Shown: positions 5,224 through 20,258 of the stretch, piece after piece
Layout of the letters: the number at the start of each line of letters is the position of its first letter
Numbering within the stretch: the stretch's first letter is position 1
IMG/VR virus record: IMGVR_UViG_2909262264_000002
Coordinates: 1-41,038 of that record
DNA length: 41,038 nucleotides
Direction: 5' to 3' (one strand)
Origin: a virus
Lineage: Duplodnaviria > Heunggongvirae > Uroviricota > Caudoviricetes
Translations under genes and position numbers: made by a program
The notes under the pieces: generated by a model
What the model was told of the DNA's origin: nothing
The model's input: the letters and a program-made list of their open reading frames with translations, nothing else
Database searches by the model: none

Positions 5224-5894
5224 TGCTCCCCAAATACAAAACCAATTTCAGCCAGTGCCTCGTCCATTTTTTCGATGAACTCCGGCACCATCTCGTCAAA
5301 ACTCGCCATGTACTTTTCATCCCGCTCAACCACGACATAATGCAGGCCTTCACGCTTCATACGCGGGTCATAGTTGGCAAAGTACCAGGCATCTTTTCGC
5401 GTCACCCACATGCTGTACTGCACCTGGGCCATGTAAGCCGACTTTATGGCCTCGAAACCACCGAGCCGGAACTTCATGAAATCCCGGGAGGTAAACGGGC
5501 ATTTCAGCTCAAGACCATTGCCGTCACTGCATAAACCATCGGGAGAGCAGGCGGTGCGCATACTTTCGTCGCGATAGATGATCGGGGATTCAGTAACATT
5601 CACGCCGGAAGTGAATTCAAACAGGGTTCTGGCGTCGTTCTCGTACTGTTTTCCCCAGGCCAGCGCTTTAGCATTAACTTCCGGAGCCACACCGGTGCAA
5701 ACCTCAGCCAGCAGGGTGTGGAAGTAGGACATTTTCATGTCAGGCCACTTCTTTCCTGAGCGGGGCTTTGCTATCACGTTGTGAACTTCTGAAGCGGTGA
5801 TGACGCCGAGCCGTAATTTGTGCCATGCATCATCCCCCTGTTCGACAGCTCTCACGTCGATCCCGGTACGCTGCAGGATAATGTCCGGTGTCAT
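5214..5894 (-). CDS. exo: Lambda exonuclease (Red alpha, 226 aa)
   Basis: Translation [37 protein letters not shown]... matches lambda Exo as I remember it. Confidence 0.95.
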
Positions 5895-6676
5895 GCTGCC
5901 ACCTTCTGCTCAGTGGCTTTCTGTTTCAGGAATCCAAGAGCTTTCACTGCTTCGGCCTGTGTCAGTTCTGACGATGCGCGAATATCGCGGCGAAATATCT
6001 GGGAACAGAGCGGCAATAAGTCGTCATCCCATGTTTTATCCAGGGCGATCAGCAGAGTGTTAATCTCCTGCATGGTTTCATCGTTAACCGGAGTGATGTC
6101 GCGTTCCGGCTGACGTTCTGCAGTGTATGCAGTATTTTCGACAATGCGCTCGGCTTCATCCTTGTCATAGATACCAGCAAATCCGAAGGCCAGACGGGCA
6201 CACTGAATCATGGCTTTATGCCGCAACATTCGTTTGGGATGCGACTGCCACGGTCCGGTGATTTCTCTGCCTTCGCGGGTTTTGAATGGTTCGCGGCGGC
6301 ATTCATCCATCCACTCGGTAACGCAGATCGGATGATTACGGTCCTTGCGGTAAATCCGGCATGTGCAGGATTCATTGTCCTGCTCAAAGTCCATGCCATC
6401 AAACTGCTGGTTTTCATTGATGATACGGGACCAGCCATCAACGCCCACCACCGGAACGATGCCGTTCTGCTTATCAGGGAAGGCGTAAATTTCTTTCGTC
6501 CACGGATTAAGGCCGTACTGGTTGGCGACGATCAACAATGCGATGAACTGCGCATCGCTGGCATCACCTTTAAATGCCGTCTGGCGAAGAGTGGTGATCA
6601 GTTCCTGTGGGTCGACAGAATCCATGCCGACACGTTCAGCCAGCTTCCCTGCCAGCGTTGCGAGTGCTGTACTCAT
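5891..6676 (-). CDS. bet: Red beta single-strand annealing protein (261 aa)
   Basis: Translation [37 protein letters not shown]... matches lambda Bet; 4-nt overlap with exo. Confidence 0.95.
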
Positions 6677-6681
6677 CCGCT

Positions 6682-7098
6682 TTATACCTCTGAATCAATA
6701 TCAACCTGGTGGTGAGCAATGGTTTCAACCATGTACCGGATGTGTTCTGCCATGCGCTCCTGAAACTCAACATCGTCATCAAACGCACGGGTAATGGCTT
6801 TTTTGCTGGCCCCGTGGCGTTGCAAATGATCGATGCAGAGTGATTCAAACAGGTGCTGGGGCAGACCTTTTTCCATGTCGTCTGCCAGTTCTGCCTCTTT
6901 CTCTTCACGGGCGATCTGCTGGTAGTGACGCGTCCAGCTCTGAGCCTCAAGACGATCCTGAATGTAATAAGCGTTCATGGCTGAACTCCTGAAATAGCTG
7001 TGAAAATATCGCCCGCGAAATGCCGGGCTGATTAGGAAAACAGGAAAGGGGGTTAGTGAATGCTTTTGCTTGATCTCAGTTTCAGTATTAATATCCAT
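6682..7098 (-). CDS. gam: Gam, RecBCD inhibitor (138 aa)
   Basis: Translation [36 protein letters not shown]... matches lambda Gam. Confidence 0.9.
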
Positions 7099-7196
7099 TT
7101 TTTATAAGCGTCGACGGCCTCACGAAACATCTTTTCATCGCCAATAAAAGTGGCGATAGTGAATTTAGTCTGGATAGCCATAAGTGTTTGATCCAT
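7053..7196 (-). CDS. kil: Kil (47 aa), host cell-division inhibitor
   Basis: The C-terminal 47 aa of the 7053..7322 [50 protein letters not shown], match lambda Kil. Confidence 0.8.
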
Positions 7197-7329
7197 TTTT
7201 TGGGACTCCTGGCTGATTAAGTATGTCGATAAGGCGTTTCCATCCGTCACGTAATTTACGGGTGATTCGTTCAAGTAAAGATTCGGAAGGGCAGCCAGCA
7301 ACAGGCCACCCTGCAATGGCATATTGCAT
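7165..7329 (-). CDS. cIII: CIII (54 aa), FtsH inhibitor that stabilises CII
   Basis: Hand translation of the minus strand gives [54 protein letters not shown], the lambda CIII sequence; it overlaps the kil start in another frame. Below ORF-track size cut-off. Confidence 0.85.
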   Translation of the reverse strand: MQYAIAGWPVAGCPSESLLERITRKLRDGWKRLIDILNQPGVPKNGSNTYGYPD

Positions 7330-7401
7330 GGTGTGCTCCTTATTTATACATAACGAAAAACGCCTCGAGTGAAGCGTTATTGGTATGCGGTAACGCCGCG
7401 C

Positions 7402-7770
7402 TCAGGCGGCTTTGATAGTCATATCATCTGAATCAAATATTCCTGATGTATCGATATCGGTAATTCTTATTCCTTCGCTACCATCCATTGGAGGCCATCC
7501 TTCCTGACCATTTCCATCATTCCAGTCGAACTCACACACAACACCATATGCATTTAAGTCGCTTGAAATTGCTATAAGCAGAGCATGTTGCGCCAGCATG
7601 ATTAATACAGCATTTAATACAGAGCCGTGTTTATTGAGTCGGTATTCAGAGTCTGACCAGAAATTATTAATCTGGTGAAGTTTTTCCTCTGTCATTACGT
7701 CATGGTCGATTTCAATTTCTATTGATGCTTTCCAGTCGTAATCAATGATGTATTTTTTGATGTTTGACAT
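7402..7770 (-). CDS. ea10: Ea10-like protein (122 aa)
   Basis: Size and position after cIII as in lambda; identification from memory of the lambda Ea10 sequence. Confidence 0.75.
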   Translation of the reverse strand: MSNIKKYIIDYDWKASIEIEIDHDVMTEEKLHQINNFWSDSEYRLNKHGSVLNAVLIMLAQHALLIAISSDLNAYGVVCEFDWNDGNGQEGWPPMDGSEGIRITDIDTSGIFDSDDMTIKAA

Positions 7771-7972
7771 CTATTCATATCCTCACAGAAAAAAATCGCC
7801 CTCACACTGGAGGGCAAAGAAGATTTCCAATAATCAGAACAAGTCGGCTCCTGTTTAGTTACGAGCGACATTGCTCCGTGTATTCACTCGTTGGAATGAA
7901 TACACAGTGCAGTGTTTATTCTGTTATTTATGCCAAAAATAAAGGCCACTATCAGGCAGCTTTGTTGTTCTG

Positions 7973-11778: not shown

Positions 11779-12476
11779 AAAACATCGCCGCACAGATGGT
11801 TAACTTTGACCGTGAGCAGATGCGTCGGATCGCCAACAACATGCCGGAACAGTACGACGAAAAGCCGCAGGTACAGCAGGTAGCGCAGATCATCAACGGT
11901 GTGTTCAGCCAGTTACTGGCAACTTTCCCGGCGAGTCTGGCTAACCGTGACCAGAACGAACTGAACGAAATCCGCCGCCAGTGGGTTCTGGCTTTCCGGG
12001 AAAACGGGATCACCACAATGGAACAGGTTAACGCAGGAATGCGCGTAGCCCGTCGGCAGAATCGACCATTTCTGCCATCACCCGGGCAGTTTGTTGCATG
12101 GTGCCGGGAAGAAGCATCCGTTATCGCCGGACTGCCAAACGTCAGCGAGCTGGTTGATATGGTTTACGAGTATTGCCGGAAGCGAGGCCTGTATCCGGAT
12201 GCGGAGTCTTATCCGTGGAAATCAAACGCGCACTACTGGCTGGTTACCAACCTGTATCAGAACATGCGGGCCAATGCGCTTACTGATGCGGAATTACGCC
12301 GTAAGGCCGCAGATGAGCTTGTCCATATGACTGCGAGAATTAACCGTGGTGAGGCGATCCCTGAACCAGTAAAACAACTTCCTGTCATGGGCGGTAGACC
12401 TCTAAATCGTGCACAGGCTCTGGCGAAGATCGCAGAAATCAAAGCTAAGTTCGGACTGAAAGGAGCAAGTGTATGA
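11775..12476 (+). CDS. P: Replication protein P (DnaB loader, 233 aa)
   Basis: Translation MKNIAAQMVNFDREQMRRIANNMPEQYDEKPQVQQVAQIINGVFSQ... matches lambda P; 4-nt overlap with O. Confidence 0.95.
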   Translation: MKNIAAQMVNFDREQMRRIANNMPEQYDEKPQVQQVAQIINGVFSQLLATFPASLANRDQNELNEIRRQWVLAFRENGITTMEQVNAGMRVARRQNRPFLPSPGQFVAWCREEASVIAGLPNVSELVDMVYEYCRKRGLYPDAESYPWKSNAHYWLVTNLYQNMRANALTDAELRRKAADELVHMTARINRGEAIPEPVKQLPVMGGRPLNRAQALAKIAEIKAKFGLKGASV

Positions 12477-12763
12477 CGGGCAAAGAGGCAATTATTCATT
12501 ACCTGGGGACGCATAATAGCTTCTGTGCGCCGGACGTTGCCGCGCTAACAGGCGCAACAGTAACCAGCATAAATCAGGCCGCGGCTAAAATGGCACGGGC
12601 AGGTCTTCTGGTTATCGAAGGTAAGGTCTGGCGAACGGTGTATTACCGGTTTGCTACCAGGGAAGAACGGGAAGGAAAGATGAGCACGAACCTGATTTTT
12701 AAGGAGTGTCGCCAGAGTGCCGCGATGAAACGGGTATTGGCGGTATATGGAGTTAAAAGATGA
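12473..12763 (+). CDS. ren: Ren (96 aa)
   Basis: Translation MTGKEAIIHYLGTHNSFCAPDVAALTGATVTSINQAAAKMARAGLL... matches lambda Ren. Confidence 0.85.
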   Translation: MTGKEAIIHYLGTHNSFCAPDVAALTGATVTSINQAAAKMARAGLLVIEGKVWRTVYYRFATREEREGKMSTNLIFKECRQSAAMKRVLAVYGVKR

Positions 12764-12785
12764 CCATCTACATCACTGAGCTAAT

Positions 12786-12818
12786 AACAGGCCTGCTGGT
12801 AATCGCAGGCCTTTTTAT
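12786..12818 (+). terminator. tR2-like intrinsic terminator
   Basis: AGGCCTGC-TGGTAATC-GCAGGCCT hairpin followed by TTTTTATTT, between ren and ninB. Confidence 0.6.
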
Positions 12819-12836
12819 TTGGGGGAGAGGGAAGTC

Positions 12837-13277
12837 ATGAAAAAACTAACCTTTGAAATTCGATCTCCAGCACATCAGCAAAACGCTATTCACGCGGTAC
12901 AGCAAATTCTTCCAGACCCAACCAAACCAATCGTAGTAACCATTCAGGAACGCAACCGCAGCTTAGACCAAAACAGGAAGCTATGGGCCTGCTTAGGTGA
13001 CGTCTCTCGTCAGGTTGAATGGCATGGTCGCTGGCTGGATGCAGAAAGCTGGAAGTGTGTGTTTACCGCAGCATTAAAGCAGCAGGATGTTGTTCCTAAC
13101 CTTGCCGGGAATGGCTTTGTGGTAATAGGCCAGTCAACCAGCAGGATGCGTGTAGGCGAATTTGCGGAGCTATTAGAGCTTATACAGGCATTCGGTACAG
13201 AGCGTGGCGTTAAGTGGTCAGACGAAGCGCGACTGGCTCTCGAATGGAAAGCGCGATGGGGAGACAGGGCGGCATGA
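12837..13277 (+). CDS. ninB: NinB (Orf) recombination mediator (146 aa)
   Basis: Translation from the internal [51 protein letters not shown]... matches lambda NinB; the ORF track starts 18 nt earlier. Confidence 0.9.
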
Positions 13278-13456
13278 GACGACAGCGACGAAGTATCACC
13301 GACATCATCTGCGAAAACTGCAAATACCTTCCAACGAAGCGCTCCAGAAATAAACGCAAGCCAATCCCAAAAGAATCTGACGTAAAAACCTTCAACTACA
13401 CGGCTCACCTGTGGGATATCCGGTGGCTTAGAGAACGTGCGAGGAAAACAAGGTGA
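13274..13456 (+). CDS. ninE: NinE (60 aa)
   Basis: [60 protein letters not shown] matches lambda NinE; start taken at the internal Met. Confidence 0.8.
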
Positions 13457-15465: not shown

Positions 15466-15540
15466 GGGTCAGTCGTATAAAGGTCATTACGGAAGGCTGT
15501 TAACCTTCTTATCGTGGTTCGAGTCCACGCTGTCCCGCCA
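15466..15540 (+). tRNA. tRNA with anticodon GUU (Asn-like), 75 nt
   Basis: Hand-folded cloverleaf: acceptor GGGTCAG/CTGTCCC (one U-U mismatch), D-loop with GG, anticodon stem GAAGG/CCTTC with loop CTGTTAA, T-arm CGTGG-TTCGAGT-CCACG, discriminator G, encoded CCA. Confidence 0.55.
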
Positions 15541-15545
15541 AATAT

Positions 15546-15621
15546 GCTGGTTTAGCTCCAATGGTAGAGCGGTCGCCTTGTAAGCGAATGGGTAGCGGTT
15601 CAAGTCCGTTAACCAGCACCA
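15546..15621 (+). tRNA. tRNA with anticodon UGU (Thr-like), 76 nt
   Basis: Hand-folded: acceptor GCTGGTT/AACCAGC, D-arm GCTC-CAATGGTA-GAGC, anticodon loop CTTGTAA, T-arm AGCGG-TTCAAGT-CCGTT, discriminator A, encoded CCA; the D-arm resembles E. coli tRNA-Thr. Confidence 0.6.
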
Positions 15622-15739: not shown

Positions 15740-15955
15740 ATGAAATCAATGGACAAAATCTCAACTGGCATTGCCTACGGAACATCCGCTGGTAGTGCGG
15801 GATACTGGTTTTTGCAGTGGTTGGATCAGGTCAGTCCGTCACAGTGGGCTGCAATTGGTGTGCTGGGAAGTCTAGTTCTGGGCTTTTTGACTTATCTGAC
15901 AAATCTGTACTTCAAAATCAGAGAAGACAGAAGAAAGGCTGCGAGAGGTGAATAA
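15740..15955 (+). CDS. S: Pinholin S21-type holin/antiholin (71 aa, dual start)
   Basis: [71 protein letters not shown] matches phi21 S as I remember it; Met1 and Met4 give the S71/S68 pair. Confidence 0.9.
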
Positions 15956-16452
15956 TGCCTCCGTCATTACGAAAAGCTGTTGCTGCTGCTATTGGTGGCG
16001 GGGCTATTGCTATAGCATCAGTGTTAATCACTGGTCCAGGTGGTAACGATGGTCTGGAAGGTGTCAGCTACATACCATACAAAGATATCGTTGGCGTATG
16101 GACTGTATGTCACGGGCATACAGGAAAAGACATCATTCCCGGTAAAACGTATACCGAAGCAGAATGCAAAGCCCTCCTGAATAAAGACCTTGCCACGGTA
16201 GCCAGACAAATTAACCCGTACATCAAAGTCGATATACCGGAAACAACGCGCGGCGCTCTTTACTCATTCGTTTACAACGTGGGTGCTGGCAATTTCAGAA
16301 CATCGACGCTTCTGCGCAAAATCAACCAGGGCGATATCAAAGGCGCATGTGATCAGCTACGTCGCTGGACATACGCTGGCGGTAAGCAATGGAAAGGTCT
16401 GATGACTCGTCGTGAGATTGAGCGTGAAGTCTGTTTGTGGGGGCAACAATGA
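15955..16452 (+). CDS. R: SAR endolysin (lysozyme with N-terminal signal-anchor-release domain, 165 aa)
   Basis: Gly/Ala-rich weakly hydrophobic N-terminal segment followed by a lysozyme-like domain; matches phi21 R. Confidence 0.9.
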
Positions 16453-16540: not shown

Positions 16541-17002
16541 ATGAGTCGGTTAACCGCGATTATCTCCGCTCTGGTTATCTGCATCATCGTCTGCCTGTCA
16601 TTGGCTGTTAATCATTACCGTGATAACGCAATCGCCTACAAAGAGCAGCGCGATAACAAGGCCAGTGAACTGGAGAAGGCGAACGCCACCATTACTGACA
16701 TGCAGCAGCGCCAGCGTGATGCTGATGCACTCGATGCTAAATACACCGGAGAACTAGCTGATGCGAAAAAGCAGCTTGATGATCTGCAGCGTTGTGTTCG
16801 CACTGGCAAGTGTGGGCTGCACTTCAATGCCCGATGTCCAGCGAGCGGAAAGACCGGCACCGGCAGCTTGGGCGATGCTTCCAGCCCCGGACTTACTGAC
16901 TCCGCTGAACGGGATTATTTCACCCTCAGAGAGCGAATCGTCACAGTGACGAAGCAGGTCGGCTACTTGCAGGACTACATCAAAGAGCAGTGTTCAAATT
17001 AG
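16541..17002 (+). CDS. Rz: i-spanin Rz (153 aa)
   Basis: N-terminal TM helix ([20 protein letters not shown]) then a coiled-coil-like charged region; start chosen at the internal Met after the endolysin. Confidence 0.8.
16761..16949 (+). CDS. Rz1: o-spanin Rz1 (62 aa lipoprotein) embedded in the +1 frame of Rz
   Basis: Signal peptide with a lipobox-like LASVGC, Pro-rich mature part, entirely inside Rz. Confidence 0.7.
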
Positions 17003-17060
17003 TGTTAATGAAGAATTTTAAGGGTAATATTATCTCTATTTCTCAGGATGGAGGTAATTT

Positions 17061-17468
17061 ATGCAGACCGATCTGGAATACTTGAAGGGAATGTTAGGGG
17101 TTTTTATTAAGGCTGGCAGACCATTGATATCAGCTAATGACCTTAAAAAAGCTGGATACGAAATAAGCAGCGATAAAGGACTCTTTCATTACTACCAATT
17201 GATTGAGAGAGGTTATATCAGTAACCATTTTCTAGAAATAGGCGATCCTAAGAAATTAGGACTTACTATTGGGCTTAATGAAATCCGTGAATGGCCAGCC
17301 AATGTAAGACTCACGTCATCAGGCCAAGAGTTTGCAGAAACCCTTCAACAAAAGGATGTTTTTGAGAAGCTAAAAACAATTAGCGATCAACCATTATCGG
17401 TATTGAAAGATGTTGGTGTAGAGCTTCTAAAATCCTACGCAAAAAAGAAATTTGGTCTTTCAGATTAA
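17061..17468 (+). CDS. Hypothetical protein (135 aa); paralog of the ORF at 2009..2437
   Basis: See the paralog alignment blocks; lies between the lysis cassette and terminase (moron position). Confidence 0.6.
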   Translation: MQTDLEYLKGMLGVFIKAGRPLISANDLKKAGYEISSDKGLFHYYQLIERGYISNHFLEIGDPKKLGLTIGLNEIREWPANVRLTSSGQEFAETLQQKDVFEKLKTISDQPLSVLKDVGVELLKSYAKKKFGLSD

Positions 17469-17469
17469 C

Positions 17470-17492
17470 TGCCTATGGGCGGTTTTTATTGC
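17470..17492 (+). terminator. Putative intrinsic terminator
   Basis: CTGCC-TATG-GGCGG hairpin followed by TTTTTATT directly after the 17061..17468 stop. Confidence 0.4.
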
Positions 17493-17784
17493 CATTACGA
17501 TGATTCTCCCCATTGTGATGGCAGTATCCCCTACAGAGGATAATTAACCATATATCCCCACAAGCAGATAAAGAGGCTCTCAATGTCCGACATCTACCAA
17601 ACCCAAACAGGCGAAACCTTTACGGGCAAGACGTCACGACGTCAGCCTGAGCTGGTTAATGGCTTTATGCAGCTGGCTACCGAGACGGGCGAGTAAATAA
17701 CTCCATTAGGAGAATGTGGAACCATTACACTTTGAGCCGTTAACTGATATTGATAAAGGTAAATAATATCCTGGTTAAGGTTTT

Positions 17785-18057
17785 CTAATAGCCAGCCATT
17801 TGCAAAATCACAGTTACAGCAGCAGCGAAAGCTGCATATGAGTTATATTTAGACTGTAACCGCGCAGTTAAGAAAAATTCGTGAAGATCTACATTTTTTT
17901 TGGGATCATCAAATGTAATTGCTACAACGGTGCTTCTACCTGTTTTGACTTTGGCTGTTGCTGATTTGATCCATAACCCAGCCGATAAAAACCCAAAGAA
18001 AATCGATAGTGCATGATGGTCAATTAACCAGTTTTTAATTAGTAATAAATCACTCAT
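17785..18057 (-). CDS. Small membrane protein of unknown function (about 90 aa, two predicted TM segments)
   Basis: Opposite strand to the late operon; hydrophobic stretches ALSIFFGFLSAGLWI and AAFAAAVTVILQMAGY; start chosen at the internal MSDLLL. Confidence 0.5.
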   Translation of the reverse strand: MSDLLLIKNWLIDHHALSIFFGFLSAGLWIKSATAKVKTGRSTVVAITFDDPKKNVDLHEFFLTARLQSKYNSYAAFAAAVTVILQMAGY

Positions 18058-18081
18058 TTTCAATCCAATTGAGACTTTGTC

Positions 18082-18633
18082 ATGGCACTCACCGACAAAC
18101 AAGAGATGTTCTGTCGCGAGTACCTCATCGATTTAAACGCCACGCAAGCGGCTATTCGGGCGGGGTACAGCGCAAAAACAGCCAACCGTACCGCATCCGA
18201 AAACCTGTCAAAACCTGACATCAAGTTAAGAATCGCCGAACTGAAAGCGCAACGCAATGATCTTGTTGGTATTAATGCAGAATATGTACTTAATCGCCTT
18301 ATTGAAATCGACCAGATGGATGTGCTTGACATTCTCCTGCAAAACGGTGAGCTAAAACCCATTAAAGACTGGCCTAAGGTATGGCGCACAACGCTATCAG
18401 GAATGGATGTCGTGGAGATGGTATCCGCAGATAGCGCCGCACTTCTGAAGAAAATCAAATGGCCTGATAAGGTTAAAAACCTTGAGTTGCTCGGGCGTCA
18501 TGTTTCTGTTCAGGCGTTTAAAGACAATGTCAAAAATGAAGTGACTGGTGCTGACGGAGGACCAGTCAGAACAGAAATTACCAACTTAACGCCGGAGCAG
18601 GTTGCAGAAGCGTATAGAAAAATGATGGGCTAA
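18082..18633 (+). CDS. Terminase small subunit (183 aa)
   Basis: Position immediately upstream of the large terminase; N-terminal HTH-like region. Confidence 0.8.
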
Positions 18634-18635
18634 GT

Positions 18636-20258
18636 ATGCCGTTACCATTCCCCTTCGATTTTAAACATCCTGATTACCAGATGGTTTTTGAATGGCGGAT
18701 GGAACGCCTACAGCGCATTCGCCAGAATCCTGAAATATTGCCCGTGTTGAAGCAGTTTTACCGAACCAATCCGGCTCAGTTCATCATCGACTGGGGCATG
18801 ACAACGGACCCGCGTAATATTGATTATGGCCTGCCGGTGACCATTCCGTTTTTACTCTTCCCTAAGCAGGAGGAGTGGATCCACTGGATTATGGAACGCT
18901 GGAGCAATCGGGAGAATGGTATTACCGAAAAATCCCGTGAAATGGGGCTCAGTTGGACCGCGATCGGACTGGCCTGCTCGCTTTGTCTCTTCAACAAAGA
19001 AATGGTTATCGGTTTCGGCTCCCGTAAAGAGGAATACGTCGACAGCACCGGTGACCCGAAAGCATTGTTCTGGAAGGCGCGCAAGTTCGTGGAAACACTA
19101 CCTGTAGAGTTTCGCGGTTCGTGGAGCGAGAAGAAGCACGCGCCATATATGCGTGTTGAGTTTCCTGAAACTGGTGCCGTTATCAAAGGCGAGGCTGGCG
19201 ATAATATTGGTCGTGGTGACCGTACCACGCTTTATCTGGTTGATGAGGCTGCATTCCTTCAGCGTCCTCTGCTGATTGATGCGGCGTTGTCACAAACGAC
19301 GCGTTGCCGTATTGACCTGAGTTCAGTTAACGGCATGGCGAACCCGTTCGCTCAGAAGCGTCATGGCGGGAAGATACCGGTATTCACATTCCACTGGCGG
19401 GATGATCCTCGCAAGGATGAAGAGTGGTATCGCAGGGAATGCGAGAAAATCGATAATCCGGTGGTGGTGGCACAGGAACTTGATCTGAACTACAGCGCAT
19501 CAGCGGAAGGCGTCCTGATTCCATCCGAATGGGTACAGGCTGCCGTTGATGCGCATATCAAACTGGGTATCCAGCCAACAGGCAAACGACTTGGCGCGAT
19601 GGATGTCGCCGACGAAGGCAGGGACAAAAATGCCTTTTCCACCCGTCATGGCTTCCTCCTGGAGAATGTGCGGGAATGGTCCGGTGTGGGCAGCGACATT
19701 TATCAGTCCGTCGAGAAGGTCTTCGGCTTTTGCGAACAGGACGATCTTGAAGAGTTTCGCTTTGACGAGGACGGGCTGGGCGCTGGCGTTCGCGGCGATG
19801 CACGCGCTATCAACGAACTGCGTAACGCTGCGCGTCGACCGTCAATACTCGCCACACCGTTTCGAGGTAGTGGCGCGGTATTTGATCCGGATGATGAAGC
19901 TGTTCGCGGGGACAACGGGCAAGCCGCACGTCTGAACAAGGACTTCTTCGCTAACGCCAAAGCCCAGAGCTGGTGGCGGTTACGTAAACTTTTCCAGAAC
20001 ACCTACCGTGCCGTGGTTGAGGGCATGGCCTACAACCCGGACGAAATCATCTCAATCAGCAGTAGCATGGCACTCAAAGATAAACTCATCATCGAGCTTT
20101 CGCAGCCGACCTATTCCATTAATGGTGTGGGAAAAATCGTTATTGATAAACAGCCTGATGGAACCCGATCGCCAAACCTTGCCGACTCGGTGATGATCAA
20201 CTATGCCCCAATGAATTCAGCCCTGAACATCTGGGAGCTGCTAGGGAGACAGGCCTGA
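18636..20258 (+). CDS. Terminase large subunit (540 aa)
   Basis: Size and position; ATPase N-terminal half and nuclease-like C-terminal half by inspection. Confidence 0.85.

Follow-up and report, generated by a model that had tools for sequence, protein, structure and literature searches.

A mosaic accessory island between the lysis cassette and the small terminase gene of a lambdoid Escherichia coli prophage

What does a prophage carry between its lysis genes and its terminase, and how might a gene placed there be transcribed against the direction of its neighbours? This question was raised by the IMG/VR record IMGVR_UViG_2909262264_000002, whose positions 1 to 41,038, the whole stretch analyzed here, are referred to as the window. 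It represents a lambdoid E. coli prophage: int and xis at the left end are followed by lambda-like early genes, Q, two tRNA genes, a P21-type holin gene, a lysozyme gene, Rz/Rz1, a Terminase_2 small terminase gene (terS), the large terminase gene (terL) and myovirus-type structural genes. The segment between Rz and terS contains the open reading frames (ORFs) orf135, orf37 and orf90, all of them exactly where an earlier reading made from the sequence alone had placed them. That reading regarded the segment as an island of morons, i.e., accessory genes such as those that confer serum resistance (bor), metabolic rewiring (pid) or phage exclusion on the host cell. The comparisons described below support a mosaic accessory island in the slot between Rz and terS. 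The locus is of a kind already known, and it carries two real, uncharacterised protein families. The favored explanation, to which a probability of roughly 0.6 was assigned, is that the mosaic arose by three independent acquisitions between the lysis cassette and terS.

The mosaic nature of the slot was evident from related prophages, in which the same flanks enclose different genes. The contents between Rz and terS differed in HZ13, S1, M10, 210205630, P22 and Klebsiella phages, and the cargo consisted of Rha, DUF2513, DUF6953, YodC or unrelated small genes. In E. coli S1, homology to the window was found at 17525-17689 and at 18082-18700, with none between, and an unrelated 72-aa reverse-strand gene (locus L005, 2831-3049) replaced window positions 17690-18081 between the same flanks. 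Among 5426 complete E. coli genomes, 16 carried the cassette of the S1 type and 10 that of the orf90 type. The base composition of the island was likewise unlike that of its surroundings, with a GC content of 36-38% over orf135 and orf90 compared with roughly 50% on either side, Rz and terL having 0.49-0.55, and orf90 lies on the strand opposite to its neighbors. As to signals of their own, orf135 is followed by a terminator and preceded by a weak promoter-like site, of which the -10 element is kept in E. coli M10 and the -35 element is not. In a stricter scan of the region, promoter-like sites were no more frequent than in shuffled sequence. A promoter for orf90 is suggested by homology to the pid promoter of P22, and no clear terminator follows the gene. 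The features of the island and its boundaries are listed in Table 1.

Table 1. Features of the island between Rz and terS and of its boundaries (window coordinates).
Feature	Position	Strand	Remarks
Rz spanin gene	16541..17002	+	Pfam Phage_lysis, E 1.6e-36; phrog_13, E 1e-68; left island boundary
Rz1, embedded in Rz	16761-16949	+	
Promoter-like site upstream of orf135	17005..17033	+	TTAATG-17-TATTAT; weak; relaxed scan, 8/12
orf135	17061..17468	+	135 aa; diverged DUF2513-type winged-helix protein
Tandem hairpin element	17467..17523	+	intrinsic terminator at 17467-17484 plus T-run; second hairpin of 16-18 bp at 17490-17523
orf37	17583..17696	+	truncated remnant of a phrog_6581 gene
orf90 cassette	17690..18081	-	3' untranslated stretch, orf90 and 24-bp divergent spacer
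orf90	17785..18057	-	90 aa; two hydrophobic segments; phrog_14357
terS	18082..18633	+	Pfam Terminase_2, E 7e-40; homology with P22/BTP1, S1 and others sets in at the start codon; right island boundary
Inferred antisense promoter for orf90 in terS	18222..18257	-	-35 TTGCGT at 18252-18257; -10 GATTCT at 18229-18234; predicted start at about 18222

A nearly identical annotated prophage is present in E. coli MS 119-7 (99.8% identity over the island query). There, RefSeq lists two 'hypothetical proteins' at the positions of orf135, to which the gene product is identical, and of orf90, leaves the position of orf37 unannotated, and annotates a 'lysis protein' at the position equivalent to Rz. A literature search for the RefSeq accessions of the island proteins returned no paper.

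Comparison of orf90 with a 69%-identical homolog on a Logan contig yielded a nonsynonymous divergence (dN) of 0.21, with the synonymous divergence (dS) saturated (dN/dS about 0.08), a substitution pattern that marks orf90 as a genuine gene kept by purifying selection. While a word-indexed search retrieved only four orf90 clusters, a full HMMER scan of 1.84 billion representative proteins retrieved 30 relatives, of which all except two had lengths of 48-129 aa, and an alignment of 28 members was built. The family, with proteins of 77-129 aa, extends across Proteobacteria. All 28 aligned members matched phrog_14357, and orf90 itself matched this family over positions 1-90 of 90 (E 4.3e-62). Four columns of the alignment were invariant (Q68, N72, A75 and A76). 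The motif G.LSA.LW.kSA..KV is found where the first hydrophobic segment ends, and the motif LQ(S/A)KWN..AA....Q leads into the second. With regard to conservation in related prophages, the gene is rare, yet maintained by selection.

The sequence-only reading had described the product of orf90 as a membrane protein with two transmembrane (TM) segments, and hydropathy was in line with this description throughout the family: Kyte-Doolittle profiles revealed two hydrophobic 17-mers in 28 of the 28 members, located at about residues 16-32 and 73-89 of orf90. Counts of lysine plus arginine averaged 0.9 for the N-terminal and 0.14 for the C-terminal tail, as against 6.1 for the loop, which is about 40 residues long. 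From this charge bias, the positive-inside rule predicts a protein whose termini both face outward and whose conserved basic loop is cytoplasmic. Searches of Pfam, NCBIfam, PADLOC and PDB sequences with orf135, with orf90 and with relatives of orf90 returned nothing usable, and orf90 matched no annotated PHROG. Matches to Cas_Csa4 (E 0.01) and, for three relatives, to DUF2513 (E 0.03) were discounted as chance-level.

The relatives of orf90 were found in diverse genomic contexts. In K. aerogenes prophages, a 92%-identical homolog lies between Rz and the packaging genes and opposes the late operon, and in a Pantoea prophage a 57%-identical homolog, encoded in reverse orientation, immediately precedes the packaging genes. 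In E. coli (L015-L018), a 54%-identical homolog adjoins RnlA/RnlB near the prophage end. Among the further relatives, one in a prophage early region immediately follows a putAbiC gene of the same orientation (L025), one lies two genes downstream of a PLDc_2 nuclease-type gene (L023), and others are found in the early region of a Pseudomonas prophage and beside baseplate genes. In Methylovirgula, trpA and trpB are separated by a distant phrog_14357-like gene of 98 aa encoded on the other strand (L027 and L028, 6001-6297). Of the eight contexts, which are usually accessory slots of prophages, seven have the gene opposed to at least some of its flanking genes; the exception is L023, where it is co-oriented with its neighbors. 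No conserved partner gene was seen across the contexts examined. These contexts fit a stand-alone accessory gene and speak against a role in a lysis cassette. RnlA/RnlB, putAbiC and PLDc_2 as neighbors amount to a weak guilt-by-association with anti-phage defense.

How orf90 might be transcribed was indicated by the pid locus of the phages P22 and BTP1. The start of terS in the window matched both phages with 92.6% identity over 81 bp, upstream of their unrelated terminase genes, and BTP1 annotates pid at the matching site. In P22, the homology to terS sets in at the base that follows the A of its start codon and extends over about 250 bp with 74% identity; the corresponding coordinates are 2501-2746 in BTP1 (L002) and 18083-18332 in the window. 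Frameshifts and stop codons in this stretch show it to be a defunct piece, about 89 codons long, of a Terminase_2 terS. The pid gene is encoded on the reverse strand, and 39 bp lie between its ATG and the beginning of the fragment; orf90 and the intact terS are arranged alike, with a gap of 24 bp. The transcription start of pid was mapped 174 nt upstream of the ATG, its weak -10 element AATCCT is located at -181 to -186 with up-mutations at -182 and -183 (PMC8835761). Its 5' untranslated region (5'UTR) has been called 'exceptionally long'. The -10 element corresponds to L002 2643-2648, inside the terS fragment, and aligns with GATTCT on the minus strand of the window, while the -35 element TTGCTT of P22 and BTP1 aligns with TTGCGT of the window (Table 1). 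The mapped promoter of pid and its 174-nt 5'UTR hence lie inside the frameshifted terS fragment. The words terminase and remnant are absent from the pid papers PMC3573128 (Cenens 2013) and PMC8835761 (Wolput 2022), and the terS origin of the long 5'UTR appears to have gone unremarked in these two papers.

Because only 24 bp separate the starts of orf90 and terS, the promoter of orf90 would be expected inside terS. By analogy with pid, an antisense promoter in terS that drives orf90, with a 5'UTR of about 165 nt, was given a chance close to even. An alternative candidate, ATGACA-16-GAAAAT at 18083-18056, was rejected, since its -10 element overlaps the ATG and the transcript would start inside the ORF.

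The same arrangement recurs with other cargo. Reverse-strand genes 22-46 bp from the terS start were found in 210205630 (YodC and DUF6953; L004 3462-3967), in the Klebsiella phage ST846-OXA48phi9.2 and in K. aerogenes (L014 2753-3073), and a protein of 106-111 aa was also among the products encoded there (loci including L009 3967-4302). In total, divergent spacers of 22-46 bp were observed for five unrelated cassettes, which suggests that the site adjoining terS is a recurrent cargo site. Since spacers of this length leave no room for a promoter, transcription should start inside terS, as was mapped for pid and as may be the case for orf90.

Pieces of terS also accompany relatives of orf90 elsewhere. 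Two K. aerogenes loci (L013 and L014) contain a block homologous to window positions 17462-18320 (87%) that includes an 82-codon ORF from the 5' end of terS (5731-5976, minus strand, in both loci). This ORF is intact and 89% identical to TerS of the window, and the real terS lies 1.3-3.3 kb away from it. It might be expressed as a free N-terminal domain of TerS. In the Pantoea prophage, 16 terS codons (L019 5930-5977) are located 24 bp from the start codon of the orf90 homolog.

Taken together, the favored explanation for the island may be formulated as follows. The probable regulator gene orf135, low in GC and bounded by its own terminator, orf37, the dead 5' part of a gene for 67-69 aa severed on insertion of the next cassette, and orf90, a self-contained reverse-strand cassette for a predicted small inner-membrane protein, would have entered independently. 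Low-level expression of orf90 from the antisense promoter would take place while late transcription is off, i.e., in the lysogen or carrier state, and its 5'UTR would be antisense to the start of terS. Q-antiterminated late transcription reads through terminators in lambda, and in lytic growth late transcription would pass the terminator behind orf135 in the same manner, meet orf90 head-on and silence it. The product would have an accessory role at the inner membrane at the level of the host cell, with blocking of incoming phage DNA as the leading guess. The proposal of the sequence-only reading that it acts in superinfection exclusion or abortive infection is kept as a plausible guess.

Several observations weigh against this explanation. 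No similarity of orf90 to defense or exclusion families was detected in PHROG or PADLOC, and its AlphaFold2 model, computed from a three-sequence alignment, had a predicted local distance difference test score (pLDDT) of 54, too poor for a fold search. The Methylovirgula member occupies a chromosomal site that is not phage-related. The candidate promoter matches the consensus in 6 of 12 positions, which is as poor as in P22, and its conservation in an intact terS is explained by coding constraint alone. The terS fragments found beside pid and the orf90 relatives could be passive recombination scars rather than parts of the cassettes. Finally, a clear intrinsic terminator was not found downstream of orf90 on its own strand.

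A wider proposal was also considered. According to it, the first 250 bp or so of Terminase_2 terS genes would serve as a built-in antisense promoter for swappable reverse-strand cargo (orf90, pid, the 72-aa gene of S1, YodC/DUF6953 and others), a terS fragment being carried along when the cargo passes to a phage whose terS is different, and phrog_14357 would be an unrecognised family of inner-membrane exclusion or defense proteins acting via the cytoplasmic loop. This combined proposal is doubtful, its probability being clearly on the low side. If true, it would account for the 'exceptionally long' 5'UTR and the odd architecture of P22 pid, it would imply a transcript antisense to the start of terS and mutually exclusive expression of cargo and late packaging genes, and it would offer a simple rule to find genes of the lysogen or carrier state in many enterobacterial prophages. 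If false, the island would be another set of hypothetical accessory genes. The locus adds the membrane protein family phrog_14357 and the DUF2513 winged-helix family to the recurrent cargo between lysis genes and terminase, and it yields a testable account of how reverse-strand cargo beside terS is transcribed.

The strongest competing explanation concerns the role of orf90, whose product might be a membrane toxin or an abortive-infection effector that, once triggered by an infecting phage, causes the inner membrane to depolarise or become permeable, perhaps together with a neighboring gene product. Small two-TM proteins are common as effectors of defense systems, which counts in favor of this idea, as do the relatives that adjoin the anti-phage toxin-antitoxin pair RnlA/RnlB or putAbiC (co-oriented, with putAbiC upstream) and the one that, on a single contig, lies two genes downstream of PLDc_2. 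However, no partner gene is constant across the contexts, and the only PADLOC match, to KwaA, was obtained for 1 of the 28 relatives at E 0.02 and is chance-level. Moreover, conservation is concentrated in the basic cytoplasmic loop and not in the hydrophobic segments, which fits binding better than pore formation. A toxin or abortive-infection effector was therefore regarded as unlikely.

Another possibility is that the island is evolutionary debris, in which orf135 and orf90 are passive passengers, the terS fragments are plain scars, no antisense promoter exists, and orf90 is either silent or expressed by read-through. The clear decay of orf37, the weakness of the candidate orf90 promoter in a region where promoter-like sites occur at shuffled frequency, and the rarity of orf90 would be in line with this. 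The gene is present in 10 of the 5426 E. coli genomes, and in 50,697 phage records tblastn matched neither orf90 nor P0049, a more common E. coli relative of 56% identity. Nevertheless, debris would not be expected to show the strong purifying selection seen for orf90 (dN/dS 0.08 with saturated dS), a family with conserved motifs across Proteobacteria, or an orf135 that is full length in 44 clusters of Enterobacterales. In addition, promoter activity of the homologous site in P22 was shown by experiment, and its start was mapped (PMC8835761). Debris is thus an improbable account of the island.

A function of orf90 in lysis timing, as a holin, antiholin or spanin-related protein of the adjacent cassette, is most improbable: it is small, has two hydrophobic segments, lies about 780 bp from Rz and resembles in its number of segments the P21-type two-TM holin of the prophage, but it is encoded opposite to the late operon and hence not co-transcribed with S, R and Rz, has no holin or lysis match in Pfam or PHROG at E values up to 0.1, lacks a charged C-terminal tail, has homologs that adjoin tail genes, RnlAB, putAbiC or early genes and not lysis genes, and is replaced by a different cassette in S1-type prophages with near-identical terS and lysis modules. 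The suggestion of the sequence-only reading that the protein could be holin- or antiholin-like is consequently disfavored.

Compared with known systems, the island resembles two loci in position and differs from both in content. pid and orf90 share the slot between lysis and packaging genes, the reverse orientation and the proximity to the start of a terS-type sequence. In P22 this sequence is a frameshifted fossil, whereas terS of the window is a working gene, and pid has a clear intrinsic terminator, which orf90 lacks. Pid is a soluble protein of 86 aa, whereas orf90 encodes 90 aa with two hydrophobic segments, and the two could not be aligned by BLASTP at E values up to 100. Pid derepresses the host dgo operon (PMC3573128, PMC8835761). 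As the sequence-only reading had pointed out, the slot is also the one that lambda uses for bor, which is encoded on the reverse strand just after Rz. Both bor and orf90 are reverse-strand accessory genes between Rz and the packaging genes; bor adjoins Rz, whereas orf90 adjoins terS. Bor is an outer-membrane lipoprotein, whereas orf90 has no lipobox, no signal peptide and no cysteine at all. Homology of orf37, orf90 and orf135 to lambda bor, lambdap78 and lambdap79 was rejected, since no BLASTP similarity was found. T4 Imm and HK97 gp15 are small inner-membrane proteins that cause superinfection exclusion. They are like orf90 in being small membrane proteins encoded by accessory genes that are not needed for virions. 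A relationship in sequence could not be demonstrated: among PHROGs, orf90 matched the unannotated phrog_14357 and none labelled as exclusion.

The second protein family of the island is represented by orf135. It had been described as a paralog of the small protein encoded near int, and tblastn bore this out: the gene at 2009-2437 on the minus strand, about 650 bp past xis and int (identified by matches to Exc and Phage_integrase), encodes a protein with 35% identity over 136 aa (E 6e-12). With 42.7 bits, the paralog exceeded the gathering cutoff of Pfam DUF2513 (29.6 bits) and covered the whole profile, whereas orf135 itself scored 15.5 bits against DUF2513 (PF10711; E 0.023), which is below the cutoff. 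Among 28 aligned relatives of orf135, 14 matched DUF2513. By these comparisons, orf135 is related to DUF2513 only transitively, via the paralog and the relatives. It belongs to phrog_585 (E 1e-26), and its 44 homolog clusters are spread across Enterobacterales, nearly all with a length of 134-136 aa.

The AlphaFold2 model of orf135, based on a 28-sequence alignment, was confident for residues 1-100 (mean pLDDT 83.7) and had the winged helix-turn-helix fold known from MarR and PadR, while no match to MarR or PadR was found in Pfam and none among PDB sequences. The C-terminal stretch KDVGVELLKSYAKKKFGL, additional to DUF2513, is basic and the most conserved part of the family, and it was modeled with low confidence; KDVGVELLKSYAKKKFGL may form a helix for partner binding or dimerisation. 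Most likely, orf135 encodes a small dimeric DNA-binding regulator. In the literature searched, no tested function was found for any member of the DUF2513 family, which was mentioned only in an unrelated context. PADLOC returned no match for orf135, orf37, orf90 or the paralog.

The orf135 family occupies the same slot between lysis genes and terminase in the Klebsiella phage ST846-OXA48phi9.2 and in E. coli M10, and apparently also in the Yersinia phage vB_YpM_39, where all flanking genes are unannotated. The type represented by the paralog adjoins xis/int in phage Chlobot (99% identity). The prophage thereby holds two DUF2513-family genes in two classic accessory slots, one on the xis/int side and one on the lysis side. 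Since orf135 and orf90 do not co-occur outside this prophage lineage, the idea that the two are functionally linked was discarded.

The hairpin and T-run that had been noticed behind orf135 were recovered as a 7-bp GC-rich stem followed by TTTTATT, and they form the first part of a tandem element. The tandem hairpin is kept in six loci with differing neighbors (the window, L004, L006, L010, L013 and L014), with one compensatory change among 23 predicted pairs, and in L010 it lies directly 3' of an orf90 homolog. It had no Rfam match in a scan of 16900-18400 and no match in the phage collection, and in the genome search it was found only in 21 E. coli genomes.

The possible 37-codon ORF proposed by the sequence-only reading is present, although not as an independent small gene. 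orf37 matched phrog_6581 (E 3e-14) at profile positions 1-41 of 66 only, and complete versions of the gene encode 69 aa in E. coli M10 and 67 aa in 210205630. The copies in HZ13, K. aerogenes L014 and the window share a truncation point, and past it their sequence shows no relation to the complete gene. The remaining lengths are 41 aa in HZ13 and L014, 37 aa in the window with its 12-nt deletion, 16 aa in S1 and 8 aa in L013. Probably, orf37 is not a working gene; the most fitting interpretation is a scar left by the insertion through which orf90 arrived.

Some features outside the island were recorded as well. The early region of the MS 119-7 prophage carries annotations of IS3-family elements and IS100 (1-1154, 6031-7832 and 12184-13397 of the MS 119-7 record). 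Between the gene for the Q antiterminator and the holin gene, the window encodes tRNA-Asn (GTT) and tRNA-Thr (TGT) at 15466-15621. The true holin gene of the prophage is located at 15740-15955 (Phage_holin_2_1, 9e-36). It is part of a lysis cassette at 15740-16452 that comprises this P21-type (class II) holin and a lysozyme with a hydrophobic N-terminus, and which looks like a pair of pinholin and signal-anchor-release endolysin.

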